From an uncultured Bacilli bacterium (lineage in GTDB: Bacteria; Bacillota_I; Bacilli_A; RF39; UBA660), in the NCBI GenBank assembly GCA_947629135.1, contig CANRCN010000001.1:411-64410 (forward strand): a stretch of 64,000 nt of DNA, read 5' to 3'. The number at the start of each line of letters is the position of its first letter. The stretch's first letter is position 1. The notes under the pieces are model-generated. The model was not told the origin of the DNA. It saw only the letters and a program-made list of their open reading frames with translations, and made no database searches. Shown piece after piece: positions 7,160-61,169 of the stretch. The position numbers were made by a program, and so were the translations under genes.

Positions 7160-7167
7160 AATCCCTC

Positions 7168-10265: not shown

Positions 10266-10299
10266 ATTATTAACCACCTTACATTAATTTCTTGAGAAA

Positions 10300-18086: not shown

Positions 18087-18103
18087 AAGGATAATTTAAG
18101 ATT

Positions 18104-31375: not shown

Positions 31376-31466
31376 CAAGTATGTTTTTTATTAACAGATG
31401 ATTAGGTGAAACCGAAGAATTAAATAAAAGAATTGTGGATGGTTATGTATAAAAAATAATTATAAC

Positions 31467-31495
31467 TTGACAAAATTGTGATTAATTTTTATAAT
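31467..31495 (+). promoter_or_regulatory. consensus sigma-A promoter inside the capsule locus
   Basis: TTGACA (31467-31472) -17 nt- TATAAT (31490-31495), 35 nt upstream of GTG 31531. Confidence 0.6.
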
Positions 31496-31530
31496 ATAGT
31501 AAATTTTTAATTTAGGATGGAGGAATTATT

Positions 31531-35130: not shown

Positions 35131-36373
<1,243 letters not shown>

Positions 36374-37521: not shown

Positions 37522-38600
37522 ATGAATAAAAAGTTAACTAATTGTAAACACGGGGGGGGGGTTATTCCACAGAAAAGTTCACTTCTAAAAAATATAAAAA
37601 TTATTGCTTTAAAATTTTAATATCTGGTATTTTTGCTTTTTTGATATTAAATGTTATTTTTAGTTTTTATTTTAATCCTCCAACTTCTGATAAGGAATAT
37701 GAAAAATCTTCTTTTTTAGTAACTCCCTTTAAATATGAACCAATGGAAAGGTTTACATATGCTCTTGAAGGACATGGTCATGGAAGAGTTAATAATGATG
37801 GATATATAAATGTAGAGGATTATGATTCTAATAAAGAAGTTAATATATTAATGGTAGGGTCATCACAGTTTGAAGCTTTTCAAGTTGATATTAAAAATTC
37901 TGTTACCTATAGATTAAATGAACTGTTGAAAAATAAGTTTGTTTATAATATAGGAGTATCAGGTAATGCATTTCCAGAAAGTATAACTAATATAGCCCCT
38001 GCTATTATTAAATATAAACCTACTGATTACATAATTTTAGAAATGTCAGATGTTAAATATTCAGATCAAGAACTTAGCAAAGTTCTCGAAGAAGAAGATA
38101 ATAAAAAAGATTCTGAAAGTTCTTCAGGTTCAAAATCAGTTAAAAATAACAATGTTATTAGAAAATTTTATAGAAATAGTTCATTTTTAAGATTGTTATG
38201 GAGAAAATTAGAAGAGTTAACCGATAATCGAGAGGCAAATTTACCTGAAGCAAAAGAAGAATTTAATGAAAAACTTACAGGAGAAGTTTTAAATAAAATA
38301 CGTACTATAGTTGAAAATAAAGTTAAAGTAATAATTGTATACCATCCTTCTGTTTCTTTAGAATCTGATGGTAATTTGATACTTTTAAATAATGAAAATG
38401 TAGAAAAATTTTCAAAGTTATGTACAGAAAATGGAATATATTTTCTTGATATGAGTGATAGATTTAGTGCAGAATATAAAAAAAATAATATTTTACCATA
38501 TGGATTTAGTAATACATCAGTAGGAAAAGGACATTTAAATAAATACGGACATGAAATGATAGCTGAAGAATTATATAAATTAATCAAGGAGGAAAAGTAG
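37522..38600 (+). pseudogene. DltD/AlgX-like SGNH-fold membrane protein (MBOAT partner) with a poly-G tract between the predicted start codon and the TM anchor; out of frame in this sequence (phase-OFF)
   Basis: ATG 37522 reads MNKKLTNCKHGGG into G10 and stops at 37620; the long ORF (37548 onward, track 37641..38600) is in the +2 frame and encodes the K-rich/TM anchor, 'MVGSSQ' and C-terminal 'GKGHLNKYGHEM' blocks; G11 or G8 would fuse them. Confidence 0.5.
37552..37561. repeat. poly-G homopolymer (G10)
   Basis: direct read; exceptional in ~25% GC DNA. Confidence 0.95.
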
Positions 38601-38601
38601 T

Positions 38602-39993
38602 ATGTCGTTTGCATCAATAGATTTTTTAATATTTTTTATAGTTGTAATATTGGGAACATTAATTATTCAAAAATTTTTCTCTAAAAGAGTGAAAGAAGTA
38701 TTCTTACTTATTGCAAGTTACTTTTTTTATGGATATTGGGATTGGAGATTTTGTTTCCTATTATTATTTGTAACCTTATCTTCGTATTTTACAGCAAAAT
38801 ATAAAGATAAAAAAGGAATATATATAATAGGAATAGTTATACCATTAATTGTACTAGGATTCTTTAAATATTTTAATTTCTTTTTGGAATCAGTATCAAG
38901 TATAATAGGTCATGATTTAGGAATATTAAATATAATTTTACCAGTTGGAATATCATTTTATACATTTCAAGCTTTAAGTTATGTAATTGATGTAAAAAGA
39001 GAAAAGATAGAAGTTGAAGATGACTTTATAAGATTAGCTTTATATTTAAGTTTCTTTCCACAACTTGTTGCGGGACCAATTGTAAGGGCAGCTGATTTCT
39101 TACCTCAATTAAAAGAAGAAAGAAAAGTAAGTTCAGAAAATTTTAAATATGGTATTCAGCTAATGGCATTTGGATTATTCAAGAAGATTGTAATAGCTGA
39201 TCATTTATCAGTTTTTGTAGATGATGTATTTAAAGTACCAGTAGCATTCCATTGGGCAACGATAGTTCTAGCCGTAATTGCTTATTCAATTCAAATATAT
39301 TTTGATTTTTCAGGATATTCTGATATAGCAATTGGATGTGCTAAATGTTTAGGATATGATTTTAATTCTAACTTTAATTTACCATATATTTCTCAAAATG
39401 TAACAGAATTTTGGAGAAGGTGGCATATAAGTCTATCAACATGGTTAAAAGAATATTTATATATTCCTCTAGGAGGAAATAGAAAAGGTAAAGTTAGACA
39501 ATATATCAATTTATTTATAACTATGTTACTTGGTGGATTATGGCATGGAGCAAGTTGGACATTTGTATTTTGGGGTGGTTTAAATGGATTAGCTTTGTGT
39601 ATAGATAAAATGATACCTAAGAAAAAAGAAAAGAATTTATTTGATAAGGTTATTGGTGTAATATTAACTTATACATTTATATGTTTTACATGGATATTCT
39701 TCAGGGCAGATAACTTTACAAATGCATGGGATATAATAAAAGGAATATTTACTTTACAAAAAGGGATAAGTCAACCTTTTGTATGGGCTTTTGTTGCAAT
39801 TATATTATTAGTTATATTTACAATAGGAGCAATTATAAAATCTCATAAGAATAAAGATAAATATGTAGATGGGTATTATCCAATAGTTAATTTAAATACT
39901 GTATTTGGATTAACAATATTCTTTGTTGTAATAGGATTAATTTTTTGTTTAGCTTTTACAGGCGAACAACCATTTGTATATTTTCAATTTTAA
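38602..39993 (+). CDS. MBOAT-family membrane O-acyltransferase (second copy)
   Basis: 'WRRWHISLSTWLKEYLYIPLGGN' MBOAT His motif; start 1 nt after the DltD-like stop. Confidence 0.85.
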   Translation: MSFASIDFLIFFIVVILGTLIIQKFFSKRVKEVFLLIASYFFYGYWDWRFCFLLLFVTLSSYFTAKYKDKKGIYIIGIVIPLIVLGFFKYFNFFLESVSSIIGHDLGILNIILPVGISFYTFQALSYVIDVKREKIEVEDDFIRLALYLSFFPQLVAGPIVRAADFLPQLKEERKVSSENFKYGIQLMAFGLFKKIVIADHLSVFVDDVFKVPVAFHWATIVLAVIAYSIQIYFDFSGYSDIAIGCAKCLGYDFNSNFNLPYISQNVTEFWRRWHISLSTWLKEYLYIPLGGNRKGKVRQYINLFITMLLGGLWHGASWTFVFWGGLNGLALCIDKMIPKKKEKNLFDKVIGVILTYTFICFTWIFFRADNFTNAWDIIKGIFTLQKGISQPFVWAFVAIILLVIFTIGAIIKSHKNKDKYVDGYYPIVNLNTVFGLTIFFVVIGLIFCLAFTGEQPFVYFQF

Positions 39994-40082: not shown

Positions 40083-41099
40083 ATGAAAAAAAAGTTAACA
40101 ATTAGTCAATCTAGGGGGGGGCATAGTAAAAAAGAGTATAAAGGTATTGATATAACAAAATTTATTATGGCAATTCTAGTAATTGCTTGTCATGCAAATT
40201 TATATACCAATTATGATGGAACAATAGGAACAATCTATCTTTTGGTACTTAGTTGTGTTGTTCCATATTTCTTTATAACTAATGGTTTCTTTATGTATAA
40301 AGATGAAGAAACCTTTGAAAATAAACTTTGGGATAATCTAAAAAAAATTATTAAATTATATATAATTTGGAATATAATTTATTTACCTATTAGTATTTAT
40401 GATTATGCTGTAAATGGGTATTCTGTTATAAAAGCAATAATTCTTTATATTCGAGATTTTCTGTTTATAGGTGATCACTTTTTTTCTTGGCCACTTTGGT
40501 ATTTACTAGGATTTATATATGCCTTGATAGCATTAATTATATTAAAAAAATTAAAATTAAATGATAAAAAAATATTTATAATTACGATGTTAACCTATAT
40601 ATTTGCAAATGTAATGGAATATTTAACATCTATTGGTTCTAATAATATTGTTGTAAAATTATTTAGTTATGTCTTTGGTGATGGAAGAGTATTTACTGGA
40701 ATATTTTTAGTTACACTTGGAATACTTATAAAAAAATACAATGATAAAATTAAGATATCTAAAAAAATATTATTATTGCTAATTATAGTGTGCTTTGCAA
40801 TATCAGTTATAATTCCAAATAAGATAAGCGAAGTTGGATTATATATATTTCTATTTTTATTAGTCAAAGAACTTAATAATATTAAATTTAATACAATTAA
40901 CTTTAGAAGGTGTAGTACAATATTTTATTTTGTACACATGATTAATTTATTTATATATATGTTAATTGTTGGGATAGATAATACTTATGGTGTTTATGGG
41001 TTTCTAATAACAATAGTTGCTTGTATGGTAGAATCTATTATTATAATATTTATTCAAAATAAGTGGAATCCAAAAATTTTAAAGGAATTGTTTAATTAA
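40083..41099 (+). CDS. acyltransferase-3 (OatA/WecH-like) family membrane O-acyltransferase with in-frame poly-G (G8) at codons 11-13
   Basis: 'KGIDITKFIMAILVIACHA' acyl_transf_3 N-terminal motif, ~10 TM; G8 at 40114-40121 encodes Arg-Gly-Gly in frame (phase-ON). Confidence 0.6.
   Translation: MKKKLTISQSRGGHSKKEYKGIDITKFIMAILVIACHANLYTNYDGTIGTIYLLVLSCVVPYFFITNGFFMYKDEETFENKLWDNLKKIIKLYIIWNIIYLPISIYDYAVNGYSVIKAIILYIRDFLFIGDHFFSWPLWYLLGFIYALIALIILKKLKLNDKKIFIITMLTYIFANVMEYLTSIGSNNIVVKLFSYVFGDGRVFTGIFLVTLGILIKKYNDKIKISKKILLLLIIVCFAISVIIPNKISEVGLYIFLFLLVKELNNIKFNTINFRRCSTIFYFVHMINLFIYMLIVGIDNTYGVYGFLITIVACMVESIIIIFIQNKWNPKILKELFN
40114..40121. repeat. poly-G homopolymer (G8) within coding sequence
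   Basis: direct read. Confidence 0.95.
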
Positions 41100-41118: not shown

Positions 41119-42300
41119 GTGATAGAAATGATATATATATATGAAGCAAAAAGAAGTCCAATAGGGAAGTTTAAAAAAGGTTTTATAAATACTGATTGCA
41201 GTATGCTTGGAATGCAAGTTGCTAAAAGTATTATTGAAAATACGAAAATTGATGTAAACAAAATTGATAAAGTTATATTAGGAAATGTTTTATCGGCTGG
41301 TTTAGGACAAAATATTGCAAGACAAATATTAATAAATAGTGGAATACCTGATGATAAAACAGCTTATTCTATTAATATGGTTTGTGGAAGTGGAATGAAA
41401 GCTGTTCATGATGCTTTTAATGATATAAAATTAGGAAATGCTCATTGCATTTTAGCAGGTGGAGTTGAAAATATGAGTATGGCTCCATTATTAAAAGATA
41501 AGTACGATGATAATAAAGAGTTAAAGGATAGTATGTTATATGATGCTTTAACGGATGTATTTTCAAATGAGCATATGGGGATAACGGCTGAGAATGTTGC
41601 AGAAAAATATAATGTAACTAGAGAAGATCAAGATAAATTTGCATATGATTCACAACATAAAGTACAAACGGCAATTGAAAATAAAAAGTTTGATGATGAG
41701 ATAGTTCCAATAAAGACTTTTGAAGGAGAAGTAATAAGTTTAGATGAATTTCCAAGATTTAATACTGAAATGGAAAAACTATCAGCTTTAAAACCAGCTT
41801 TTAAAGAAAATGGAACAGTAACTGCTGGAAATGCTTCTGGAATTAATGATGGCTGTGCTTTGTTATTAATTGGAGATGAAACAATTAGTTTAAAACCTAA
41901 AGCTGAAATTATAGATTTTGCTGAAGCTGGATGTGATCCTAATTATATGGGAATGGGACCATTATATGCAATATCTAAATTATTAGAAAAAAATAATTTA
42001 AATATTAATGATATTGATTTATTTGAAATAAACGAAGCCTTTGCTTCTCAAAGTATAGCAGTTATAAGAGAATTATCTAAAAAATACAATATTAATTTAG
42101 AAGAATTTAACTCTAAAATTAATGTCAATGGTGGAGCAATTGCTTTAGGACACCCAGTTGGTGCATCAGGTGCAAGAATTATAACTACTTTAGTTCATGA
42201 AATGAAAAGAAGAAATTCAAAATATGGTGTAGCTTCACTTTGTATAGGTGGTGGTATGGGAATAGCTGTATTATTAAAAAATATGTGTGAGGAGGATTAA
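41119..42300 (+). CDS. acetyl-CoA C-acetyltransferase (thiolase II, PhaA/ThlA-like)
   Basis: Thiolase signatures: N-terminal 'EAKRSPIGKF', catalytic Cys 'NMVCGSGMKAV', C-terminal 'NVNGGAIALGHPVGASGARI' and 'SLCIGGGMG'. Confidence 0.85.
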   Translation: MIEMIYIYEAKRSPIGKFKKGFINTDCSMLGMQVAKSIIENTKIDVNKIDKVILGNVLSAGLGQNIARQILINSGIPDDKTAYSINMVCGSGMKAVHDAFNDIKLGNAHCILAGGVENMSMAPLLKDKYDDNKELKDSMLYDALTDVFSNEHMGITAENVAEKYNVTREDQDKFAYDSQHKVQTAIENKKFDDEIVPIKTFEGEVISLDEFPRFNTEMEKLSALKPAFKENGTVTAGNASGINDGCALLLIGDETISLKPKAEIIDFAEAGCDPNYMGMGPLYAISKLLEKNNLNINDIDLFEINEAFASQSIAVIRELSKKYNINLEEFNSKINVNGGAIALGHPVGASGARIITTLVHEMKRRNSKYGVASLCIGGGMGIAVLLKNMCEED

Positions 42301-42301
42301 T

Positions 42302-43015
42302 ATGTTAGAAGGAAAAATTGCAATAGTAACTGGAGCATCTCGTGGTATCGGATTAGAAATAGCAAAGTTGTTTACAAAAGAGGGAGCAAAAGTTATTGGT
42401 ACATATAATCATAATAAAACAGATATAGATGGTGTAGATTTTTATAAATTAGATGTTTCTAACAGAGAAGAAGTTAAAACATTTGTAGATACTATTATTA
42501 ACAAGTATAATAAAATAGATATTCTTGTTAATAATGCTGGAATAACAGCTGATGCATTAACTAAAAAAATGTCTGATGAAATGTTTGATAAGGTAATAAA
42601 TACTAATCTTACAGGAACCTATAATATAACTAAACTAATTGGTCCAATTATGCAAGATAATCATAGTGGTAGTATAATTAATATTACATCAATAGTTGGT
42701 ATATATGGAAATATTGGACAAGTAAATTATGCAGCTTCAAAAAGCGGTATTATAGGAATGACCCATACTTGGGCAAAAGAATTTGCTATGAAAGATGGAA
42801 ATGTTAGAGTTAATGCAATAGCACCAGGATATACAATGACAGAGATGCTTAAAACAGTTCCAGAAGAATTATTAGACAAGTTTAAAAGTATGACTTTATT
42901 GAAAAGATTAGCTGAACCTGAAGATATAGCTAATGCAGCATTATTTTTAGCAAGTGACATGGCTAGTTATATAACAGATGAAATATTAAATGTTAATGGT
43001 GGCATGAAATTATAA
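42302..43015 (+). CDS. SDR-family 3-oxoacyl reductase (FabG/PhaB-like acetoacetyl-CoA reductase)
   Basis: 'TGASRGIG' cofactor motif, 'NAG' and 'YAASK' catalytic motif; GAGGAGG RBS 6 nt before ATG 42302. Confidence 0.85.
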   Translation: MLEGKIAIVTGASRGIGLEIAKLFTKEGAKVIGTYNHNKTDIDGVDFYKLDVSNREEVKTFVDTIINKYNKIDILVNNAGITADALTKKMSDEMFDKVINTNLTGTYNITKLIGPIMQDNHSGSIINITSIVGIYGNIGQVNYAASKSGIIGMTHTWAKEFAMKDGNVRVNAIAPGYTMTEMLKTVPEELLDKFKSMTLLKRLAEPEDIANAALFLASDMASYITDEILNVNGGMKL

Positions 43016-43051: not shown

Positions 43052-44094
43052 GTGAAAAAGAATATAGAAAAAGTTAACAATAAGTCACCTCGGGGGGGGG
43101 GGCTTATAAAAAATATATAATAATATTTAAATTAATATTATCTTGCTTTATTGCATTTATAATATTAAATTTGTTTTGTATTTTTTATTATAATATACCA
43201 GTACATTCTACTTCTAAAGATGGTGCAACTGATTACGTTTGGGAACCAAACAAGTTTTATTCACGTTGGACTGAAGGCTTTGGATATGGAAGAACGAACA
43301 ATGAAGGTTATTATGATTATAAAAAATATAAAAAGAGCGATAATGTTGATATATTAGTTATGGGATCTTCACATATGGAAGCAGCTCAAATACAACAAAA
43401 TAAATCTACATCAGGATTGCTTGATAATATGTTAAAAGATTATTATGTTTATAATATAGGAATATCGGGTCATACATTTATAACCTGTGTTAGTAATCTT
43501 GAAGCTGCTATTACTAAATATAATCCAAATAAATATATTATTATTGAAACTAACACAGTTACTTTTTCAGATAGTGATTTGAACAATGCATTGAACAATT
43601 CAGTTGAAGAAATTCCTTCTTATGATGGAGGTGTAATTGGTATACTACAGCAAAATCAACTTTTAAGATTATTATATCATCAAGCAGAGTCTTTTCTTAA
43701 TTTAGAAAATGAAGGAGATATAATTCCAAATAGTCAAACTAACTTTGATACTAATTTTAACTTATTAAATCAACTTTTTATAAAAATGCAAGAAAAAGCA
43801 GAAAAAAATAATATTAAAATAATAATAATGTATCATCCAAGTACAACTTTGAATAAAGATGGAAGTTTAAATTTGTCAAGTGAAAATGAAAATATAGAAG
43901 AATTTTCGAAATTATGTAAAGAAAATGGAATATATTTTCTTGATATGAGTGATAGATTTAGAGAAGAATATGAAAAGAATTATATTCTACCATATGGATT
44001 TAGTAATACATCAGTAGGCACAGGTCATTTAAATAAATATGGACATGAAATGATTGCTGAAGAATTATATAAATTAATCAAGGAGGAAAAGTAG
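43052..44094 (+). pseudogene. second DltD/AlgX-like SGNH-fold paralogue, again with a poly-G tract between the predicted start (GTG 43052) and the TM anchor, out of frame in this sequence
   Basis: GTG 43052 reads VKKNIEKVNNKSPRGGG into G11 and stops at 43120; the long ORF (open from 43084, track 43171..44094) is in the +2 frame; the C-terminal 60 aa are near-identical to the 37641 paralogue; G12 or G9 would fuse them. Confidence 0.45.
43092..43102. repeat. poly-G homopolymer (G11)
   Basis: direct read. Confidence 0.95.
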
Positions 44095-44275
44095 AGTATC
44101 GCTTTTATCAATAGACTTTTTAATATTTTTTATAGTTATAATACTAGGAACATTTATTATTTAAATATAGAAGTATTCTTACTTATTGCAAGTTACTTTT
44201 TTTTAATATTGGATTTAATATTTTGTTTTCTATTTCATATTTTACAGCAAAATATATGTATATTTCAAATTTTAA
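44095..44275 (+). pseudogene. degenerate 5' remnant of an MBOAT gene (partial duplicate of 38602-38800)
   Basis: Nucleotide-level similarity to the start of MBOAT 38602 ('atcaatagactttttaatattttttatagtt', 'gaagtattcttacttattgcaagttacttttttt', 'tattttacagcaaaatata') with internal deletions and stops. Confidence 0.55.
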
Positions 44276-44588: not shown

Positions 44589-46625
44589 ATGAAAACTATA
44601 TTAAAAAAAATTGATATCAAATTAGTTATTGCAGTTATTATACATTTTTTAATAACGTTTATTACAGATAGAAATATATTTATTTTTAAAGAAATAAATA
44701 TTACTAATTATATTTTGTGTAAAGTAGTATTGTTAGGATTATTAATATTATTATGGAAGTTTATATTTAAATTAATTCATAAAGATAAGAATGCTGTTGA
44801 TTATTTTAAAAAGTTTTTAATATACATAATTCCAATTTCTATTTTATTAGTTTTGTGTTGGCCAGGTAATTGGTTTGGACCAGATGTTGCTAATTTTTAT
44901 CAATTTGCAATTCGTGGCAATTTTGTATATTATCTTAATTACTTATCATCAGTTTTTTATATTATAGGTTTAATGTTCTTTCCAGTTCCAAGTGGTCCTA
45001 TTATTCTTTTAGCTATTTTATTTGGAATTGTATTTTCTTATTTAACTAAAAATCTATATGATATTTATAAAAGTAAACTTGTTTATTTAATGTTAATTCC
45101 ATTCTTTATGTTAAATACTTTATTTTATACTTTTTATGCTAATAGACCAATTATTTTTGGAATTATTTATTTATTATTAATTAGTATTATTTTACTTGAT
45201 AAAATTAAAAATAATAAATTAACTAATAAAAAAATTTTAGCTTTAATTATTTTAACAGGAGTCGCAGCCTATTGGAGAACTGAGAGTATTTATTTAATTC
45301 TTGCTATTCCTTTATTTATTTTTATAGTCTATAAATTAAAAGTAAATTTTAAAAACATTGCTAAGATCTTTGGTTTTACTATTTTAAGTTTTCTAGCTAT
45401 ATCATTACCTCAAAAAATATATGAATATAATTTTCATGATTATCCATTATCATCACGTAATGCAGCTATATATATTTTACCTTTATCTTATATGTTAACT
45501 AAAGATTTAAAGGGGAAAAATTTAGAAAGTAATTTAGCTAAAATTGATAAAGTTATAGGAATAGAAGAAATGAAAAAATATCCATCCTATAATGATACTT
45601 ATTGTATTTGGGAAAGTAATTGTAAAAAATTAGATTATACTAAAGAAGAATATAAAGAGTTTCAAAAAGCTTATTTTGATGTAATAATTAATAATTTTCC
45701 TGAATATTTAAAAACAAGAATGTTAACATTTGTAGGTGCAAGTGGTCTTTATAATAATACTTTTACAACTAAGAATTTATATAATGAAAATATAGAGACT
45801 TTATTTGAAAGAAAAGATACTAAACCATTTATTAATTATAAAATAAGGAAAGTTGTTTATTCAATTTTAGAAGGAAGAATTTCTGATAAAGGAAGATCTA
45901 TTCTTCCATATAATCTAACTAATAATTTAATAATACCTTTGTTATTTATTGGAATATTATTTATATATTCAATTGTAAAAAAGAAGTTATTTTACTTTTT
46001 GTTATCTGGGATGTTGATTGGTCATACTACGATAGTTTTCTTTACAGCTCCTGCTAACTATGCAATGTATTATTTTAATATTTATTTAACTGGATTAGTA
46101 GTTGGAGTTATGTTTATAATTGATTATATATATTATAAAAAGAATAAAAAATGTTATTTATTAGATATAAAGAAAAAAAATAAAAAGAAAGTAAAAAGGG
46201 AGGAATCAAAGATAAAAAAATTAATAGTTCAAGCTTTTAAGTTCTTTGGAATATCTGGAATAGGATGGTTAATTGATTTTACAACTTATACAGTTATGAC
46301 AAGTTTACTAAAAATAGATATCATGATTGCTAATATTATAAGTTCATTTTTAGGAATTACTTTTGTCTATTTAGTTTCAACGAGAAAATTATTTCAGAAT
46401 AATAGTAAATATAATTTAAAAGTAAAATATATTGCTTATATTTTATATCAAGTTGTTTTTGTATTATTAGTTTCTTATATAATGACATTTTTAAAAGAAT
46501 ACTTATTAGGATTTGATGTTAAATTAATAAGTGATTATGTCAATATAATAACTAAAATTGTAGTAACTCCATTTACAATGGTAATAAATTTTATAGTTAT
46601 GAAAAATTTAATAGAGAGGATTTAA
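44589..46625 (+). CDS. large polytopic GT-C-like membrane protein (GtrC/YfhO-like by context) fused to a C-terminal GtrA-family domain
   Basis: ~14 TM helices; first 520 aa paralogous to 50747..52330 (identical blocks 'WPGNWFGPDVANFY', 'PVPSGPIILLAILFGIVFSYLTKNLYDIYKSKLVYLMLIPFFMLNTLFYTFYANRPII'); last ~140 aa have 4 TM with GtrA-like pattern; a GT2 gene follows immediately. Confidence 0.5.
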   Translation: MKTILKKIDIKLVIAVIIHFLITFITDRNIFIFKEINITNYILCKVVLLGLLILLWKFIFKLIHKDKNAVDYFKKFLIYIIPISILLVLCWPGNWFGPDVANFYQFAIRGNFVYYLNYLSSVFYIIGLMFFPVPSGPIILLAILFGIVFSYLTKNLYDIYKSKLVYLMLIPFFMLNTLFYTFYANRPIIFGIIYLLLISIILLDKIKNNKLTNKKILALIILTGVAAYWRTESIYLILAIPLFIFIVYKLKVNFKNIAKIFGFTILSFLAISLPQKIYEYNFHDYPLSSRNAAIYILPLSYMLTKDLKGKNLESNLAKIDKVIGIEEMKKYPSYNDTYCIWESNCKKLDYTKEEYKEFQKAYFDVIINNFPEYLKTRMLTFVGASGLYNNTFTTKNLYNENIETLFERKDTKPFINYKIRKVVYSILEGRISDKGRSILPYNLTNNLIIPLLFIGILFIYSIVKKKLFYFLLSGMLIGHTTIVFFTAPANYAMYYFNIYLTGLVVGVMFIIDYIYYKKNKKCYLLDIKKKNKKKVKREESKIKKLIVQAFKFFGISGIGWLIDFTTYTVMTSLLKIDIMIANIISSFLGITFVYLVSTRKLFQNNSKYNLKVKYIAYILYQVVFVLLVSYIMTFLKEYLLGFDVKLISDYVNIITKIVVTPFTMVINFIVMKNLIERI

Positions 46626-46629
46626 TTGT

Positions 46630-47439
46630 ATGGAAAAGATAATGGTTTTTATACCAATGTATAATTGTGAAAAACAAATAGTTAGAGTTTTAAAGCAATT
46701 TGATAAAGAGGTTTTAAAATATATTGAAGAAATTGTAATTATTAATAATAGAAGTACTGATAATGGAGAAGAAGCAGTTATTAATTTTAGTAAAGAAAAT
46801 AAAATAGATAAGAAACTAACTTTACTTAGAAATGATGAAAATTATAATTTAGGTGGATCTCACAAAGTAGCTTTTGATTATGCAATTAAGAATAACTATG
46901 ATTATTTAATTGTTTTACATGGTGATGATCAAGGAAGTATTCATGATTTGTTACCATATCTTAAAAATAAAGAATATGAAAATTATGATTCTTTACTTGG
47001 TTCAAGATTTTTAAAAGAATCTAAACTAGAAGGATATTCTAAGTTTAGAACTTTTGGAAACATTGTTTATAATTTTGCTTTTTCCATATTACTTGGGAAT
47101 AAAGTAAAAGATTTAGGTGCAGGATTAAATATGTATAAAGTTGAATCTTTAAAAAATAAATATTATATTAAATATCCTGATAGATTAACTTTTAATTGTT
47201 ATATGTTACTTGCTATTAAATCTTATAAACAAAATGTAAAATATTTTCCAATAACATGGAGAGAAGATGATCAAGTTTCTAATGTTAAAATGGTATCACA
47301 AGCTTTTAAAACAATAATGATACCAATTAAATATTTTTTTAGAAGAAGTAAGTATTTAGAAAGTGAGCATAGAGATAAGATAATAGAAGATTATACTGCA
47401 AGTTGTATATATAGTATTGGAGGTAAAAATGGAAAATAA
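46630..47439 (+). CDS. GT2-family glycosyltransferase, GtrB/DPM1-like without C-terminal TM helices
   Basis: 'MVFIPMYNCEKQIVRVLKQF' GT-A start, 'LHGDDQGS' DxD-type motif. Confidence 0.65.
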   Translation: MEKIMVFIPMYNCEKQIVRVLKQFDKEVLKYIEEIVIINNRSTDNGEEAVINFSKENKIDKKLTLLRNDENYNLGGSHKVAFDYAIKNNYDYLIVLHGDDQGSIHDLLPYLKNKEYENYDSLLGSRFLKESKLEGYSKFRTFGNIVYNFAFSILLGNKVKDLGAGLNMYKVESLKNKYYIKYPDRLTFNCYMLLAIKSYKQNVKYFPITWREDDQVSNVKMVSQAFKTIMIPIKYFFRRSKYLESEHRDKIIEDYTASCIYSIGGKNGK

Positions 47440-48175
47440 GGTACATTTAATCATGCCTATGGGAGGAGCAGGCTCAAGATTCTTTAAAAATGGATATGTT
47501 ATGCCTAAACCATTAATTGAAATAAATGGTAAACCATTTTTATATTGGTCAACTATGTCAATTAAAAAATATATAGATTTAGAAGATATAACTTTTGTTA
47601 TTCTTCAAGAACATATTGATAATTTTGAAATTGATAAAGTTATTTTAAAATATTTTCCTGATGCAAAATTTGTAGTATTGAAGGAAATGTTTAAAGAAGG
47701 ACCTGTATTAACTTGTAAGGCAGGACTCGAGAATATTAATGATGATCTTCCAATTATTTTTAATGATTGTGATCATTATTTTAAGAGTAGTAGTTTTAAT
47801 GATTTTTGCAATAGTGAAGATAAAAGTTTGGTTGATGGAGCTTTAGTAACTTTTGAAGCTGATGATCCTAAGTTTAGCTATGTTGAATTAGACGAAAATG
47901 GAAATGCTAAACGAACTGTTGAAAAAGAAGTTATTAGTAATGATGCGATTTGTGGAGCATATTATGTTAAAAATAAAAAAATATTCTTAGATAGTGTTTC
48001 AGAGTACATGGATAATTGTAATTACAAAGAATTTTTTGTAAGTGGTATTTATAACATTATGATAAAAAATGGTTTAACTGTAAAAAACTTTAGAGTAGAT
48101 TTTCATATTCCATTTGGAACTCCTGAAGAATATGAACTTGCTAAAGAAAAAGTAGAATTTGAGGAAATAAAATGA
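47429..48175 (+). CDS. sugar-phosphate/alcohol-phosphate nucleotidyltransferase (NTP_transferase fold, LicC/RmlA-like)
   Basis: 'LIMPMGGAGSRF...MPKPLIEINGKPFL' nucleotidyltransferase G-rich loop; GGAGG RBS 5 nt before ATG 47429. Confidence 0.6.
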   Translation: MENKVHLIMPMGGAGSRFFKNGYVMPKPLIEINGKPFLYWSTMSIKKYIDLEDITFVILQEHIDNFEIDKVILKYFPDAKFVVLKEMFKEGPVLTCKAGLENINDDLPIIFNDCDHYFKSSSFNDFCNSEDKSLVDGALVTFEADDPKFSYVELDENGNAKRTVEKEVISNDAICGAYYVKNKKIFLDSVSEYMDNCNYKEFFVSGIYNIMIKNGLTVKNFRVDFHIPFGTPEEYELAKEKVEFEEIK

Positions 48176-50061
48176 TTTACTTCACATTAATTCTTGCAAT
48201 TATCTTCATGGTAATTGGTCATTATTTTAAAGTTTATAGGTTAAAACAATTTATAGAAATTTATGAAAAGCCAAATACTCCTAGATTACTTCAAGCTTTA
48301 TCTATAAGTTATGTTATCAATTTCTTTGTTCCGTTTAGATTAGGAGACATCTTTAGAGCTTGGTGGGCTGGAAGAAAGATGAAAAATGGAGTATCATTTT
48401 CTTTGACAACGGTTATTGTTGATAGAATTTTAGATGTTATAGTAGTTGCTTTAATCTTTTTTAGTTTTTATCTATTAGGCTTTAAAGAAAAAGTAATTGA
48501 AAGTTCTATTTATTTTTATATAATAGGTGGTTCAGTTTTATTAATATTATTATTTTTAGGAATGAAATTTAGTAAATATATAAAAATATCAATTATGAAA
48601 TTTGCTAGAATATTTAATACTAATATTGAACTTAGGATATTAAAATTTACTTGGTATATTATCACAGCCTTTAAAGACTTAATATCAAAACTTAAAAAAA
48701 GCGAATTGTTAATTAATACAATTGTTATGTGGTTCTTTTATTTAGGTTCATATTCTTTATTTGCTTTAACAATGCGATTTTCAGGAAGTAATACAAGTTT
48801 AGTTGATATATTTACTTTATTATTTTCAAAGAATAGTTTTGATCTTTCAACTGGTGCTTTTTCAATTAGTAATTATTATATGGTAATTTATTTATTAGTG
48901 CCATTAGTTATTTTGTTAATTTTATCTTTATTTAAGACTAAAGAAAAAGGTAAAAATTATGTAAAAAATAAATATTTAGAGTTATTACCTCAATTAAATT
49001 CTTCAGATAAATTAGTTTTTTTAGAAGGATATTTCAGTGCTCGTTCTAGAGAATATTTTAATAATTATGTTATGTTAAATCGAGATATTTCTATTATTCA
49101 AGATTTTTCAGCAGGTAGTAATGCTACAACTATGCTTTGTACTTATGATAATAAAATGTTTTTTAGAAAATATAGTTTTGGTAAAGATTCTTCTAAATTA
49201 TATGAACAAATTAAATGGTTAAAAGAACATCAAAAAGTTATACCTTTAACTAAGGTTTTAAATGTTAAAAGAGGCAATGAATATTGTTCTTATGATATGC
49301 CATATTTTAATAATGCTATTAGTTGCTTTAACTATGTTCATTCTACACCTATTAATAAATCATGGCCAGTTCTTGAAAAGGCTCTTAATACTATAGGTGA
49401 AAATTTACATACTAAAAATTTAGTAAATGCTGATATTAAAAAAATAGATGAATATATAGAAAGTAAAGTTATAAATAATTTAAAAAAAATTGAAAATGGT
49501 AATTATATTAAACCTTTACTTAAATATAATTATTTAATTATAAATGGTAAAAAGTATCATAATTTAAATTATTTTATGAAATATTTAACAAAAGAATACT
49601 TAGAAGAGTTGTTTAAAAATGATATGTATTCTGATATTCATGGGGATTTTACAATTGAAAATATTATTTGTTTTAATGATAAAGATGATTTTTATATAAT
49701 AGATCCAAATACTGGTAATGTTCATGATTCTCCAAATCTTGATTATGCTAAGTTATTACAATCTTTACATGGTGGATATGAATTTTTAATGAATACAAAA
49801 AGTGTTTCAGTTTCTGAAAATAATATTAATTATTTATTTACTAAATCAGCTGTATATGATGAATTGTATAATAAATATCATAAGTATTTATGTGATAAGT
49901 TTGATAGAATAAAAGTAAAAAGTATTTATTTTCATGAAATTATTCATTGGTTAAGGTTATTACCTTATAAAATAGAAAAAAATGGTGAAAGACAAGTATT
50001 ATTTTATGCAGGACTTATTATAGTATTAAATGATGTAATAGAAATGTTTGGTGATGATTAA
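48172..50061 (+). CDS. fusion protein: N-terminal flippase-like (LPG-synthase-TM/UPF0104) membrane domain + C-terminal choline/aminoglycoside-kinase-fold (APH/ChoK) kinase
   Basis: N-terminus 'RLGDIFRAWWAGRK' with ~8 TM; C-terminus 'DIHGDFTIENIICFNDKDDFYIIDPN' matches the H-G-D-x-x-x-x-N ... D-x-N catalytic/Mg loops of ChoK/APH kinases. Confidence 0.55.
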   Translation: MIYFTLILAIIFMVIGHYFKVYRLKQFIEIYEKPNTPRLLQALSISYVINFFVPFRLGDIFRAWWAGRKMKNGVSFSLTTVIVDRILDVIVVALIFFSFYLLGFKEKVIESSIYFYIIGGSVLLILLFLGMKFSKYIKISIMKFARIFNTNIELRILKFTWYIITAFKDLISKLKKSELLINTIVMWFFYLGSYSLFALTMRFSGSNTSLVDIFTLLFSKNSFDLSTGAFSISNYYMVIYLLVPLVILLILSLFKTKEKGKNYVKNKYLELLPQLNSSDKLVFLEGYFSARSREYFNNYVMLNRDISIIQDFSAGSNATTMLCTYDNKMFFRKYSFGKDSSKLYEQIKWLKEHQKVIPLTKVLNVKRGNEYCSYDMPYFNNAISCFNYVHSTPINKSWPVLEKALNTIGENLHTKNLVNADIKKIDEYIESKVINNLKKIENGNYIKPLLKYNYLIINGKKYHNLNYFMKYLTKEYLEELFKNDMYSDIHGDFTIENIICFNDKDDFYIIDPNTGNVHDSPNLDYAKLLQSLHGGYEFLMNTKSVSVSENNINYLFTKSAVYDELYNKYHKYLCDKFDRIKVKSIYFHEIIHWLRLLPYKIEKNGERQVLFYAGLIIVLNDVIEMFGDD

Positions 50062-50615
50062 TGAAAAAATTAGCAATGATTGATTTAGATGGAACTTTGT
50101 TTGATACTAACGAAGTAAATTATTATGCTTATAAAGAATCTTTAAATGAAAAAGGATTTGATCTTGAGTATGAACATTATAAAAATGAATGTAATGGTAG
50201 ATATTATAAAGTATTTTTACCTGATATAGTTAATAATGATGAAGAGGTTATGGAATATGTTCATAAAAGAAAAAAAGAATTATATGAAAAATATTTGGAT
50301 AAGGCTATTGTAAATGAACATTTATTTAATATTTTAGAAAGTATAAAAGATAAATACTATTTAGCTTTAGTTACAACAGCTTCTAAAAAGAATACTTATG
50401 ATATTTTAAAATATTTTAAAAAAGTTGAATTATTTGATTTAATTTTAACTCATGATGATATTGAAAAGCCAAAGCCAGATCCTGAAGGATTCAAAAAAGC
50501 TTTAGATTATTTTAAGATTGATGCTAAAGATGCAATCGTTTTTGAAGATTCTAATGTTGGAATAGAAGCAGCTAAGAAAGTTGGAGCTACAATTTTTAAA
50601 ATAGAAAATTTTTAG
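50061..50615 (+). CDS. HAD-IA hydrolase (beta-phosphoglucomutase/phosphatase-like)
   Basis: 'MIDLDGTLFDT' HAD motif I and 'FEDSNVGIEAAKKVG' motif IV. Confidence 0.7.
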   Translation: MKKLAMIDLDGTLFDTNEVNYYAYKESLNEKGFDLEYEHYKNECNGRYYKVFLPDIVNNDEEVMEYVHKRKKELYEKYLDKAIVNEHLFNILESIKDKYYLALVTTASKKNTYDILKYFKKVELFDLILTHDDIEKPKPDPEGFKKALDYFKIDAKDAIVFEDSNVGIEAAKKVGATIFKIENF

Positions 50616-50746: not shown

Positions 50747-52330
50747 ATGAAAAAAAAATTAAAAAAAATTAATTTTAAATTGATAATTATTGTTTTAATA
50801 CATTTTGTAATAACATTTTTTACAGATAAAAATATATTTGTTTTTTCTGATATAAATATTATTAATTATATTTTTTGTAAAATTATATTTTTATTAGTTT
50901 TATATTTATTTTGGAAATTTATCTTTAAATTAATAGACAAAGATAAAGTAATGATTAGTTATTTTAAAAAGTTTTTAATATATATGATACCTATTAGTAT
51001 ATTATTAATTTTATGTTGGCCAGGTAATTGGTTTGGGCCAGATGTTGCTAATTTTTATGAATATGCAATTCATGGTAATTTCTTATATTATCTTAATTAT
51101 TTATCATCAGTTTTTTATATGATAGGTTTTATGTTTTTTCCAGTTCCAAGTGGACCTATTATTCTTTTAGCTATTTTATTTGGAATTGTATTTTCTTATT
51201 TAACTAAAAATCTATATGATATTTATAAAAGTAAACTTGTTTATTTAATGTTAATTCCATTCTTTATGTTAAATACCTTATTTTATACTTTTTATGCTAA
51301 TAGACCAATTATATATGGAGTTTTTTACTTGCTATTAATTAGTATTATTTTACTTGATAAAATTAGAAATAACAAATTAACAAATAAAAAATTTCTTGTA
51401 TTAATGATTTTAACAGGAATATCTTCCTATTTTAGAAGTGAAAGTATTTATTTAATTCTTGCTATTCCTTTATTTATTTTTATAGTTTATAAATTAAAAG
51501 TAAATGTTAAAAACATTGCTAAGATATTTGGATTTACAGTTTTAGCTTTTTTAATAGTTGCAATGCCTCAAAAGATATATGAATATAAAAATGTTGAAGA
51601 TCAATATACTCGTAATTTACCAATATATATTACACCTTTATCTTATATGTTAACTAAGGATTTAAAAGGTAAAAATTTAGAAAGTGATTTAGCTAAAATC
51701 GATAAAGTTATTGGAATAGAGGAGATGAAAGAATATCCATCTTATATAGATGCTTTTTGTGTTTGGAATAATGATTGTTTAAAGACAGGCTATACTAAGG
51801 AAGAATATAAGGAGTTTCAAAAAGCTTATTTTGATGTAATAAAAAATAATATACCAGAATTTATAATGACTAAAACTTTAACTTTTGCTAATGCAAGTGG
51901 GGTTTATGGAAGTACTTTTACAACTAAAAATTTATATAATGAAGATAATCAAATGTTATATAAGAGAAAAGATACTAAACCTTTTATAAATTATAAAGTA
52001 AGAAGATTTACATATTCACTTCTTGAAGGAAGATTAACTGATAAATGGCAACCTAATATTTTATATAGAATTTTTAATAATTTATTTGTATCATTCTTAA
52101 TCATTGGAATAATATTTATATATTCAATTATTAAAAAGAAATTATTTTACTTTTTATTATGTGGAATGTTAATTGGACATGCTGTTATAGTTTTCTTTAC
52201 AGCACCAGCTAGTTATTTTATGTATTATTTTAATGTTTATTTATGTGGGTTAGTTCTTGGAGTAATATTTGTAATAGATTATATATATTATAAAAAACAT
52301 AAAAAAAGTTATGTTTTAAAGAACAAGTAG
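50747..52330 (+). CDS. GT-C-like polytopic membrane protein, paralogue of 44589 without the GtrA fusion
   Basis: 527 aa, long identical blocks with the 44589 product. Confidence 0.5.
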   Translation: MKKKLKKINFKLIIIVLIHFVITFFTDKNIFVFSDINIINYIFCKIIFLLVLYLFWKFIFKLIDKDKVMISYFKKFLIYMIPISILLILCWPGNWFGPDVANFYEYAIHGNFLYYLNYLSSVFYMIGFMFFPVPSGPIILLAILFGIVFSYLTKNLYDIYKSKLVYLMLIPFFMLNTLFYTFYANRPIIYGVFYLLLISIILLDKIRNNKLTNKKFLVLMILTGISSYFRSESIYLILAIPLFIFIVYKLKVNVKNIAKIFGFTVLAFLIVAMPQKIYEYKNVEDQYTRNLPIYITPLSYMLTKDLKGKNLESDLAKIDKVIGIEEMKEYPSYIDAFCVWNNDCLKTGYTKEEYKEFQKAYFDVIKNNIPEFIMTKTLTFANASGVYGSTFTTKNLYNEDNQMLYKRKDTKPFINYKVRRFTYSLLEGRLTDKWQPNILYRIFNNLFVSFLIIGIIFIYSIIKKKLFYFLLCGMLIGHAVIVFFTAPASYFMYYFNVYLCGLVLGVIFVIDYIYYKKHKKSYVLKNK

Positions 52331-52357: not shown

Positions 52358-53338
52358 ATGAAAGAAGTAAAAAAAGAATATAAAGGTATAGACATAATGA
52401 AATTTTTATTAGCTATAGTTATTATAATTTATCATACTCGTTTATATACTGGTAATAATCATACTTTAAAAACGATTTATGATCTTTTGTTAAGTTCTGC
52501 TGTTCCTTTATTTTTTATAACAAGTGGATTTTTTGTATATGATAAATATAAACAAGAAGAAAGGATAACTAAGTTATTAAAGAAAAATATTAAATTATAT
52601 CTCATTTGGAATCTTATTTATCTTCCAATTGCTATATATGGAGATGTTATTAATAATTATTCAGTTGGAAAATCAATTTTGTTATATATACGTGAATTTT
52701 TATTCTTAGGAGAACATTATTTTAGTTGTCAAATTTGGTATTTATTGTCATTTATATATTCTTTAATAATATTATTGGTGTTAAAAAAATTAAAATTAAA
52801 TGATATAAAAATATTTATAATAACTATTTTAATATATGTTTTTGCAACGGTGATGGTATATTTAACTTCTAATAATTTTGATTATAAATTTGTTAAATTA
52901 TTTAGTAGTATTTTTTCAACAGGAAAAGTATTTTTAGGACCAGCTATAGTTACACTTGGAATGTTTATTAATAAGTATAAAGATAAGATAAAAATATCTA
53001 AAATTGTATTATTATTAATGATTGTTTTATGTACTGTTGTATCAATTATATTTCCAAATAAAATAAGTAGAATAATGCTTTATATATTTGTATTCTTGTT
53101 AGTTATGAATTTGAATAATATTAAATTTAATACTGTTAATTTTAGAAAGTGTAGCATTATATTTTATTTTATTCATATGATTAATTTGTTTATTTATATG
53201 TTAATAGTTGGTATAAATAATACATATGGAATATATAGTTTTATATTTACACTTATTACTTGCATAATAGAATCAGTTATTATAATAGCAATTCAAAATA
53301 AATGGAATCCTAAAGTGTTAAAAGAAATATTTAGTTGA
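52358..53338 (+). CDS. acyltransferase-3 family membrane O-acyltransferase, paralogue of 40083 lacking the poly-G N-terminal extension
   Basis: 'KGIDIMKFLLAIVIIIYHT' motif; near-identical C-terminus ('NIKFNTVNFRKCSIIFYFIHMINLFIYMLIVGINNTYG'). Confidence 0.6.
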   Translation: MKEVKKEYKGIDIMKFLLAIVIIIYHTRLYTGNNHTLKTIYDLLLSSAVPLFFITSGFFVYDKYKQEERITKLLKKNIKLYLIWNLIYLPIAIYGDVINNYSVGKSILLYIREFLFLGEHYFSCQIWYLLSFIYSLIILLVLKKLKLNDIKIFIITILIYVFATVMVYLTSNNFDYKFVKLFSSIFSTGKVFLGPAIVTLGMFINKYKDKIKISKIVLLLMIVLCTVVSIIFPNKISRIMLYIFVFLLVMNLNNIKFNTVNFRKCSIIFYFIHMINLFIYMLIVGINNTYGIYSFIFTLITCIIESVIIIAIQNKWNPKVLKEIFS

Positions 53339-60835: not shown

Positions 60836-60867
60836 TTTAGTAAAAAATTATAAATAAGTGTTTGAAA

Positions 60868-60890
60868 GGGAATAAAAATTCTCTTTTTTT
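60868..60890 (+). terminator. possible Rho-independent terminator after the AIPR gene
   Basis: stem 'gggaat'/'attctc' (one G-U), AAAA loop, T7. Confidence 0.35.
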
Positions 60891-61169
60891 ATACTTTTTA
60901 GAAAAAATTTAAACCATTAAGATAGTTTTTAAATGGTATTAGAGCTATTACCTAACAAGAAAATGAGTAGTCTTTTAATCAAATATAAACATAAAATTTA
61001 TGGAGGTGAATTTTAAAAAATGAATATAAAAGAAACTTTCGATAATGATAAAAATTTGGTTGATTTGATAGAAGAATATTTAAAAATAATGCTATTTAAA
61101 GAGAGAGACTCCTAGTTATGAATTATAGTGAATATACTTGTGAAGTTATGCATTTAAAAGGAGTTGTAA

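Follow-up and report, generated by a model that had tools for sequence, protein, structure and literature searches.

Why would a bacterium keep the genes for a thiolase and a ketoreductase inside its capsule locus? The question is raised by a 64-kb stretch of contig CANRCN010000001.1 (assembly GCA_947629135.1) from an uncultured Bacilli bacterium; the whole stretch is called the window here. A predicted type II thiolase and a short-chain dehydrogenase/reductase (SDR) are encoded there one directly after the other, among acyltransferase genes. Bacterial surface sugars recurrently carry 3-hydroxybutanoyl groups as immunodominant substituents, and a preliminary description of this DNA had proposed that the pair provides the acyl donor for such a substituent. 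From the comparison of related loci we consider it very likely that the pair supplies 3-hydroxybutyryl-coenzyme A (CoA) for glycan decoration. The fuller statement, that the pair belongs to a donor-supply cassette for a surface glycan in which a membrane acyltransferase of the Acyl_transf_3 (AT3) family forms an O-ester, is one that we favor with less assurance but still think probable.

Thiolase and reductase genes

The thiolase gene lies in a plus-strand open reading frame (ORF) at 41119-42300, co-oriented with the next ORF and 393 aa long when counted from GTG 41119. Because an AAGGAG ribosome-binding site lies 9 nt upstream of ATG 41128, this ATG rather than the GTG is probably the true start; the product then has 390 aa, the same as in the public protein collection. 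The gene (41128..42300, +) is complete and was annotated as a type II (biosynthetic-type) thiolase from its domains, its NCBIfam match, its catalytic motifs and its PDB matches. The Pfam domains are Thiolase_N (PF00108, 1.3e-82) and Thiolase_C (PF02803, 3e-50), and the NCBIfam model TIGR01930 (acetyl-CoA C-acyltransferase) scores 452.7 bits, above its cutoff of 240.55. The motifs VCGSG (86), NEAFA (302), GHPVGASG (341) and CIGGG (372) are intact and are conserved throughout the clade of relatives described below; we take them to correspond to Cys89, Asn316, His348 and Cys378 of the Zoogloea enzyme. The top PDB matches are the acetoacetyl-CoA thiolases 8k1c, the C. difficile entries 4dd5 and 4e1l, and 1dlu from Zoogloea. 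By domains and catalytic residues the predicted product of 41128-42300 belongs to the thiolase II/TIGR01930 subfamily. Family chemistry and the conserved catalytic residues suggest that it would join two molecules of acetyl-CoA into acetoacetyl-CoA.

The reductase ORF spans 42287-43015 (+), and its true start at ATG 42302 gives a protein of 237 aa. This ATG stands 1 nt past the thiolase stop and its AGGAGG site lies within the 3' end of the thiolase gene, an arrangement from which the two genes are predicted to be translationally coupled. The stop of the AT3 gene upstream (AT3a) is separated from the thiolase gene by 28 nt. We annotated 42302..43015 (+) as a FabG/PhaB-type classical SDR and putative acetoacetyl-CoA reductase from its adh_short_C2 domain (Pfam, 2.9e-61), its PDB matches and its catalytic triad. 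The best NCBIfam models are FabG TIGR01830 (265.8 bits; cutoff 297.75) and acetoacetyl-CoA reductase TIGR01829 (226.6 bits; cutoff 302.1). In PDB the top matches are the FabG homologues 4nbt (1.8e-86), 4nbu and 4nbv; next comes 2et6, a (3R)-hydroxyacyl-CoA dehydrogenase domain. Some of the 4nbt-4nbw FabG homologues have reportedly been assayed with acetoacetyl-CoA.

Aligned to E. coli FabG (S138, Y151, K155), the reductase has TGASRGIG, NNAG, the Ser of NITSIVG and YAASK at the matching positions. With a cofactor motif, NNAG and the Ser-Tyr-Lys triad, the protein has the predicted make-up of a classical SDR ketoreductase. The cofactor is probably NADPH, because the ASRGIG...VIGT arrangement fits E. 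coli FabG and not the NADH-type relatives. Since the fold is that of an SDR, whereas the (S)-specific Hbd of clostridia has the 3HCDH fold, family chemistry leads us to expect that the product should be the (R)-alcohol. FabG of fatty-acid synthesis does not fit: the protein is below the TIGR01830 cutoff, there are no acyl carrier protein (ACP) or fab genes nearby, and its partner is a thiolase. The reductase appears instead to represent a separate FabG-like family (best PDB match 4nbt), not a PhaB orthologue, which is widely paired with thiolases in acyl-CoA metabolism. Its family chemistry and conserved residues suggest that the coupled reductase would turn acetoacetyl-CoA into (R)-3-hydroxybutyryl-CoA.

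Domain scans agree with the preliminary description that a thiolase and a FabG/PhaB-type SDR are encoded here, in a capsule locus and with MBOAT/DltD-like and Acyl_transf_3 neighbors. Its view that this is not a fermentation or polyhydroxybutyrate context also held: Hbd, crotonase, Bcd/Etf and polyhydroxyalkanoate (PHA) synthase were not found among the window ORFs scanned (nearly all of those of at least 100 aa; the unscanned ones are all of 311 aa or less). The alternative that it had named, an Hbd-type reductase linked to butyrate fermentation, loses ground on both the SDR fold and the absence of Hbd, Crt, Bcd and Etf, in the window as in the related loci.

Related loci

Homologues of the thiolase were collected by a search of 5.8 billion proteins, and the genomic setting was checked for nine members of its clade. 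The clade comprises 24 relatives (62-83% identity, all of 384-390 aa). Outside it are ordinary acetyl-CoA acetyltransferases of 400-402 aa, at most 57% identical to the window thiolase. When genome contigs were scanned with the thiolase, all relatives were at 34-47% identity. All nine sampled thiolases lie in glycan loci of organisms with 24-27% GC, and each directly precedes a reductase of 237-239 aa that is 73-86% identical to that of the window. Hbd, crotonase, Bcd/Etf and PHA synthase are near none of the nine. The proposal of an acyl-donor supply for a polysaccharide is thus borne out by context: glycan loci throughout, the same reductase next and, usually, an acyltransferase third.

In L002, L005, L007, L009, L016, L018 and, from a metagenome scan, L025, the third gene overlaps the reductase stop and encodes a 225-aa hexapeptide acyltransferase of the left-handed beta-helix (LbH) type. 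These proteins share 68-82% identity with one another; their best PDB match is QdtC 3fs8 (full length, 1e-19), with the FdtD-like 4mzu next. The thiolase-SDR-LbH trios usually stand beside RmlA, RmlB, FdtA and a DegT aminotransferase, the route to dTDP-Fuc3N/Qui3N; FdtB is among the neighbors as well. Fuc3N and Qui3N with an N-[(R)-3-hydroxybutanoyl] group have been documented in O antigens (PMC4869667, PMC3726653), and a gene set of this kind is their textbook setting. The simplest reading of the relatives' loci is that the pair makes 3-hydroxybutyryl-CoA and that the product of the next gene uses it. In most relatives a QdtC-like LbH N-acyltransferase would then yield dTDP-Fuc3N or dTDP-Qui3N carrying a 3-hydroxybutanoyl group.

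A glycan-locus cassette of thiolase, 237-239 aa reductase and abutting acyltransferase is accordingly seen as AT3-thiolase-SDR in the window, as thiolase-SDR-AT3 in L001 and as thiolase-SDR-LbH in seven loci. Of the relatives with known context L001 (GCA_947630065.1) is the nearest, with 84% nucleotide identity in the pair and a syntenic capsule locus. There the AT3 gene follows the pair after 20 nt, and MBOAT and SGNH genes are absent. When the window and L001 are compared, the ratio of nonsynonymous to synonymous substitution rates (dN/dS) comes to 0.14 in the thiolase gene and 0.12 in the reductase gene, which indicates that purifying selection keeps the pair in both AT3-type loci, where the LbH partner is missing.

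The proposed acyltransferase partner

The comparative context suggests that 3-hydroxybutyryl-CoA would be passed to a glycan acyltransferase encoded beside the pair. The best candidate for the donor user in the window is AT3a (40083..41099, +), a stand-alone Acyl_transf_3 membrane O-acyltransferase of 338 aa (PF01757, 5.6e-16). We propose it because it abuts the pair, because L001 also has an AT3 beside the pair, because AT3 enzymes accept non-acetyl donors and because O-(3-hydroxybutanoyl) esters exist. The L001 AT3, directly after the pair, is 63-64% identical to AT3a. Donors other than acetyl-CoA that AT3 enzymes accept include succinyl, propionyl, butyryl, isobutyryl and isovaleryl groups (PMC9558356), and the exopolysaccharide of Rhizobium leguminosarum bears O-(3-hydroxybutanoyl) esters (PMC3233446). 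With moderate confidence, then, we assign O-3-hydroxybutyrylation in the window to AT3a. As its adjacency suggests, the enzyme would modify the capsule or a second surface glycan, during or after export. A second paralogue, AT3b (52358..53338, +), is 63% identical to AT3a and has no poly-G tract; it is a candidate for an alternative donor user or for an ordinary O-acetyltransferase. The hexapeptide transferase at 20272-20865 was considered as the missing LbH partner and rejected, being WbbJ-like and 29% identical over part of its length.

Poly-G tracts

Runs of seven or more G or C number three in the 64 kb, all poly-G, where about 0.01 would be expected. They are G10 at 37552-37561 in SGNH1, G8 at 40114-40121 in AT3a and G11 at 43092-43102 in SGNH2, SGNH1 and SGNH2 being two SGNH/DltD-like genes that flank the region. 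Each tract lies 30-40 nt past the start codon of an acyltransferase-related gene around the pair, and the 5' leaders of the three genes are about 75% identical to one another. AT3a is in frame, and SGNH1 and SGNH2 are each one base out of frame. A tract of G11 or G8 would restore SGNH1 (358-359 aa; 359 aa with G11), and one of G12 or G9 would restore SGNH2 (346-347 aa; 347 aa with G12), in both cases with a membrane anchor.

Similar tracts occur in related material. The AT3 gene of the related capsule locus L019 has G11 (9879-9889) and is out of frame, while G12 would give 340 aa; in L020, which comes from a different sample, the tract of this gene is G10 (4-13). Further G10 tracts in related capsule loci are at 8368-8377 in L001 and at 3759-3768 and 5927-5936 in L019. 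The genes with G10-G11 tracts in these loci encode AT3, TupA-type ATP-grasp and hexapeptide-transferase proteins. In the window, a homopolymer in the 5' coding region sets the reading frame and both ON and OFF states are found, as in contingency genes. This suggests slipped-strand phase variation of capsule acylation, with homopolymer assembly error as the alternative. Campylobacter, Neisseria and Haemophilus vary surface decoration stochastically in a like manner. The tract in AT3a would make the proposed O-3-hydroxybutyryl decoration switchable.

A further repeat was noted in an FrhB/FdhB-like gene by the pyruvyl-transferase genes. In the window this gene is split at a (TA)~18 repeat (35480-35516); its intact L001 orthologue has a G10 tract (5403-5412) at that site. 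Two different hypermutable repeats therefore occupy one site.

Origin of the pair

A metagenome scan with the reductase alignment gave 80 loci, which were surveyed by tblastn. The reductase family adjoins a thiolase in roughly half of them, over a range of 27-61% GC. Where the reductase is 60% identical or less, the neighbors are acyl-CoA dehydrogenases, ETF, CoA-transferases, TetR regulators and FabH-like genes, and such neighbors indicate that the family acts on CoA thioesters, not on ACP. Loci with a reductase 59-78% identical are glycan loci: L024 and L025 have thiolase-SDR-LbH, L033 a PglD-like acyltransferase and L026 the order Bac_transf-GNAT-SDR-GT4. At 59-66% identity the reductases adjoin other N-acyltransferase folds in glycan loci, namely the PglD-like protein of L033, the GNAT of L026 and an LbH trio in L041. 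In L041 (1932-4689; 61% GC) the order is LbH acyltransferase (62% identity), reductase (61%) and thiolase (44%), so the glycan cassette is not confined to low-GC bacteria. The pair has the look of an old metabolic unit working at the CoA level; one of its branches would have moved into glycan loci and been joined there with acyltransferases of several folds.

Among L027-L103 the 4nbt-like reductase family (motifs GxYGNIGQ and IGMTHTW) goes with a thiolase over this GC range, often near FabH-like genes, acyl-CoA dehydrogenase/ETF and branched-chain amino-acid ABC permeases. No named pathway matched this widespread metabolic pair in our searches.

MBOAT and SGNH genes around the pair

Upstream of AT3a are SGNH1 (37522..38600, +; ORF 37641-38600, the frame being broken at G10), an SGNH/DltD-like extracytoplasmic acyltransferase or esterase paralogue, and a 463-aa MBOAT (AlgI/PatA/DltB-like) membrane acyltransferase (38602..39993, +; PF03062, 6e-36). 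Downstream of the reductase is the second paralogue, SGNH2 (43052..44094, +; ORF 43171-44094, broken at G11), which is 45% identical to SGNH1 with the last ~70 aa nearly identical. SGNH1 gave a weak NCBIfam SGNH match, and a sequence search against PDB gave none. Foldseek with its AlphaFold model (pLDDT 58, pTM 0.63) matched only SGNH/GDSL folds, including the peptidoglycan O-acetyltransferase PatB 7tjb. The label DltD-like for these proteins therefore seems reasonable as a statement of predicted fold. SGNH1 in its restored frame shows an N-terminal hydrophobic membrane anchor, and with the MBOAT domain protein beside it the two have the predicted pattern of a two-component MBOAT/SGNH system. 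A Dlt D-alanylation system was ruled out: the MBOAT scores 162.5 bits against the DltB model, far under the cutoff of 375, and no DltA or DltC ORF was found in the Pfam scans or at 36.3-44.7 kb.

In L023 (GCA_947629475.1) the MBOAT has at least 90% amino-acid identity to that of the window and the SGNH-MBOAT segment 85% DNA identity. An intact 357-aa SGNH protein and the MBOAT are encoded there between an NTP-transferase/LPG_synthase_TM/HAD block and the genes for a GtrA-fused membrane protein and a GT2, and L023 has no thiolase, reductase or AT3. Because L023 has the module without the pair and L001 has the pair without the module, the MBOAT/SGNH genes are a separate module, predicted for O-acylation, whose association with the pair is coincidental. 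SGNH1 is the partner of the MBOAT and probably outside the 3-hydroxybutyryl route.

Direct repeats mark the junction. Positions 38391-38674 recur at 43885-44168 (90%) and 38694-38728 at 44169-44203 (100%), such that the last 210 nt of SGNH1 and the first ~100 nt of the MBOAT gene are found again after SGNH2. The latter part is an MBOAT 5'-end remnant of ~110 nt (44096..44210, +), beyond which are about 380 nt of non-coding AT-rich DNA. From the repeats and the remnant it follows that recombination placed an AT3a-thiolase-SDR-SGNH2 segment in between the MBOAT gene and that of the GtrA type. The flanking module, presumably for O-acetylation, would thus have been brought alongside the pair by recombination. 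The preliminary description had set the pair among membrane O-acyltransferases; this is true as a matter of position, but the MBOAT/DltD-like part is a by-product of mosaic recombination and gives no functional clue.

The capsule locus

The window has a GC content of ~23.7%. From ~11.6 to 53.3 kb nearly all genes are on the plus strand and form one big surface-polysaccharide region, a Wzx/Wzy-type capsule locus. It begins with genes for Wzz, a tyrosine kinase, CpsB phosphatase, CapD dehydratase, a DegT aminotransferase and Bac_transf, and continues with a formyltransferase-like protein, a FemAB-like protein and several GT4 glycosyltransferases. These are followed by pyruvyl transferase, Wzx, two TupA-type ATP-grasp enzymes, UDP-glucose dehydrogenase and the block of decoration genes. 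Searches for ACP, KAS III, DltA and DltC revealed no ORF at 36.3-44.7 kb down to 30 aa, nor any in the Pfam scans. A homology search with the ABC-F protein of the window gave hundreds of metagenome relatives at 80-93% identity. There are no tRNA genes in the window, and a promoter/terminator scan of this AT-rich DNA was uninformative (80 sites vs. 74 expected).

Several other gene groups were observed. At 16765-19162 and 30413-32649 are a sugar formyltransferase-like gene, a FemAB/GNAT-like gene and two TupA-type ATP-grasp ligase genes; the repeat unit of the capsule probably bears many formyl and amino-acyl substituents too. Two paralogous large polytopic membrane proteins are encoded at 44589-46625, fused to a C-terminal GtrA, and at 50747-52330, without GtrA, both with ~83% DNA identity to a single L023 gene. 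Together with the GT2 at 46630-47439 they look like a Gtr-type extracytoplasmic glycosylation module. The block at 47417-50615 is 91% identical to L023. It encodes an NTP-transferase, a 629-aa protein in which an N-terminal LPG_synthase_TM domain precedes a long unassigned stretch, and a HAD hydrolase; decoration with phospho-substituents (Lic-like) is a possible role.

On the minus strand, 6149-10277 includes a second MBOAT gene (7168-8448; DltB model 180 bits, below cutoff), flanked by genes for a 336-aa and a 609-aa protein. The 609-aa protein has no family match, and the 336-aa protein resembles SGNH1 only weakly, by a C-terminal GxHLN-type similarity. The window end (59102-62756) encodes an AIPR-like protein that matches MzaE weakly and a large CcrB/XisF-like serine recombinase, for which public data contain 753 near-identical sequences. 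The two point to a mobile or defense element beside the polysaccharide region.

Discussion

The proposal that the pair supplies 3-hydroxybutyryl-CoA, with AT3a as its user, has several points against it. With the FabG model and with the acetoacetyl-CoA reductase model alike, the reductase scores under the curated cutoff, and the window has no 225-aa LbH partner of the kind that goes with the pair elsewhere. The L001 AT3 is 76% identical to the AT3 of L019, which has the same locus position and no thiolase or reductase there, and 63% identical to AT3a; AT3 phylogeny therefore does not track the pair, and this made us less sure of the AT3 step. Most of the 3-hydroxybutanoyl sugars on record carry the group as an N-acyl substituent, and we know of no AT3 that transfers 3-hydroxybutanoyl groups. 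A review of AT3 enzymes makes no mention of 3-hydroxybutyryl transfer (PMC9558356). Finally, the view is of a 64-kb window, so the absence of other thiolases cannot count against a housekeeping role.

The same points lend themselves to other explanations. The pair could make the donor for a cytoplasmic N-acyltransferase elsewhere in the locus, either the FemAB/GNAT-like protein (18104-19162) or the hexapeptide protein (20272-20865), to give an N-(3-hydroxybutanoyl) amino sugar via CapD and DegT, with the AT3 as an ordinary O-acetyltransferase. The pair serves N-acyltransferases in all other sampled loci, the CapD dehydratase, DegT aminotransferase and Bac_transf of the window would give a 4-amino sugar, Bac_transf-GNAT-SDR is seen in L026, and the AT3 orthologue of L019 occurs without the pair. 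Yet the candidates lie 20 kb upstream of the pair, whereas in every other locus the user abuts it; the hexapeptide protein resembles WbbJ and maltose-O-acetyltransferase and is outside the 225-aa family; and a formyltransferase-like gene (17379-18086) is already beside the amino-sugar genes. We regard this explanation as unlikely. Alternatively, the MBOAT might move the 3-hydroxybutyryl group across the membrane for attachment to the polymer by an SGNH paralogue. This would account for the physical embedding of the pair between SGNH1-MBOAT and SGNH2, and SGNH2 has diverged enough that a new specificity is possible. It is nevertheless very unlikely in view of L001, whose pair has no MBOAT or SGNH, and of L023, whose SGNH-MBOAT genes are joined to the GtrA/GT2/NTP-transferase block without thiolase, reductase or AT3. 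Moreover, the remnant of a deleted MBOAT after SGNH2 indicates that SGNH2 once stood in an ordinary SGNH-MBOAT unit, and both SGNH genes are out of frame as sequenced.

The order of the steps might also be reversed, with acetoacetyl put on the sugar first and then reduced there by the reductase, as proposed for VioR. dTDP-N-acetoacetyl-viosamine has been drawn as an intermediate before VioR (PMC3927599), and the glycan loci L026, L033 and L038 have the reductase without an adjacent thiolase. The reductase family is, however, paired with thiolases in plain acyl-CoA metabolism and its PDB neighbors were deposited as FabG reductases or (3R)-hydroxyacyl-CoA dehydrogenase; besides, if AT3 acts at the membrane, the exported acetoacetyl ester would be out of reach of a reductase in the cytoplasm. 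A reversed order thus seems highly improbable. Least probable of all is that the pair belongs to central or fermentative metabolism, or is an inactive passenger of recombination, unrelated to the glycan. It is true that the thiolase is 50-57% identical to housekeeping clostridial thiolases and that the region is a recombination mosaic. The nine clade members argue otherwise, since all are in glycan loci and Hbd, Crt, Bcd and Etf adjoin none of them; so do the dN/dS values of 0.12-0.14, the coupling of the genes and the intact active sites.

We therefore retain the donor-supply cassette as our preferred reading. A broader generalization is offered more tentatively, as a possibility that we do not expect to hold in every part. 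A portable module of a thiolase and an (R)-specific ketoreductase would have been recruited from acyl-CoA metabolism into low-GC glycan loci, where it combines with acyltransferases of four folds or more (QdtC-like LbH, PglD-like, GNAT and AT3). In the window it would feed a phase-variable AT3, resulting in a switchable O-(3-hydroxybutyryl) ester on a Gram-positive-type capsule.

The value of the finding is in the clean comparative signal and in the phase-variable switches. In the well-studied Gram-negative loci the transferase alone is known and the origin of the donor is merely assumed. A cassette that travels with the transferase would be a sequence marker to predict 3-hydroxybutyryl decoration from genomes and metagenomes, and a compact set of parts for glyco-engineering of 3-hydroxybutyryl sugars. 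The AT3 variant is a testable case of a membrane acyltransferase with a hydroxyacyl donor; if the assignment is true, it would be an AT3 donor specificity not yet described and the first AT3 encoded with its own donor pathway. The three poly-G switches suggest that this lineage varies capsule acylation stochastically, which bears on phage and immune evasion in the gut.

Comparison with known systems

The preliminary description had called the pair PhaA/PhaB-like. The likeness holds for the predicted two-step chemistry to (R)-3-hydroxybutyryl-CoA, the Cys/Asn/His/Cys set of a type II thiolase, the classical SDR and the adjacency of the genes. Orthology does not hold, as both proteins are far below the equivalog models (PhaA NF042967, 307.5 bits vs. 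740; PhaB NF042966, 174.6 vs. 436). PhaC was not detected among the scanned window ORFs, and the expected product is a glycan acyl donor instead of a polyester. The clostridial Thl-Hbd-Crt-Bcd-Etf system is also unlike the pair, since Hbd, crotonase and Bcd/Etf are neither in the window ORFs scanned nor in the nine clade loci.

The closest functional precedent is the viosamine island of Pseudomonas syringae, where VioS (KAS III), VioR (a FabG-like reductase) and an ACP are encoded beside the VioB acyltransferase and are needed for N-(3-hydroxy-1-oxobutyl)-viosamine on flagellin (PMC3927599). Both systems have C4 hydroxyacyl genes inside a glycan locus and beside an acyltransferase gene, and both have a FabG-like reductase. 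The island uses KAS III and ACP, whereas the window has a thiolase instead and neither of the former was found at 36.3-44.7 kb; its route is therefore expected to be CoA-based. The window and clade organisms are of the low-GC Gram-positive type, in contrast to Pseudomonas.

Gram-negative O-antigen and K loci encode 3-hydroxybutanoyl transferases such as FdhC (E. coli O103, Salmonella O55), QdhC, QhbC, PsaG/H and LgaH/I (PMC4869667, PMC9676051). The expected end product of FdhC-type loci is the same as in the relatives' loci, Fuc3N or Qui3N with (R)-3-hydroxybutanoyl. As described, however, those loci provide the transferase only and take the donor from general metabolism, whereas the locus here encodes the donor pathway too. 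The transferase partner here is QdtC-like (LbH) or an AT3, unlike FdhC, which we take to be a GNAT. QdtC itself (Thermoanaerobacterium thermosaccharolyticum, 3fs8), a dTDP-Qui3N N-acetyltransferase, has RmlA/RmlB/QdtA/QdtB-type neighbors like those of the relatives' 225-aa proteins. It takes acetyl-CoA, whereas the 225-aa protein, operon-linked to the pair and absent from the window, probably takes 3-hydroxybutyryl-CoA.

AT3 enzymes with non-acetyl donors include ExoH, IcaC and MdoC (succinyl) and CarE/AcyB1, MdmB and Asm19 (C3-C5 acyl) (PMC9558356). AT3a resembles known AT3s as a stand-alone protein of the 10-transmembrane type, of about 340 aa and in a polysaccharide locus, and H. influenzae oafA is a precedent for a phase-variable AT3; none is reported with 3-hydroxybutyryl transfer or with a donor pathway encoded alongside. 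The flanking genes at 37522-39993 fit the pattern of an MBOAT with a membrane-anchored SGNH protein known from PatA/PatB, AlgI/AlgJ/AlgX and DltB/DltD, independently of the pair. A full-text search, thin on subscription journals and thus a weak negative, turned up no polysaccharide locus described as containing a thiolase or an acetoacetyl-CoA reductase gene. Measured against these systems, 3-hydroxybutanoyl decoration and the principle of a locus-encoded donor supply are already known. As far as these searches reach, the novelty is that a cassette of thiolase and reductase works at the CoA level, that it combines as a module with acyltransferases of several folds, and that in this capsule locus it is paired with an AT3.

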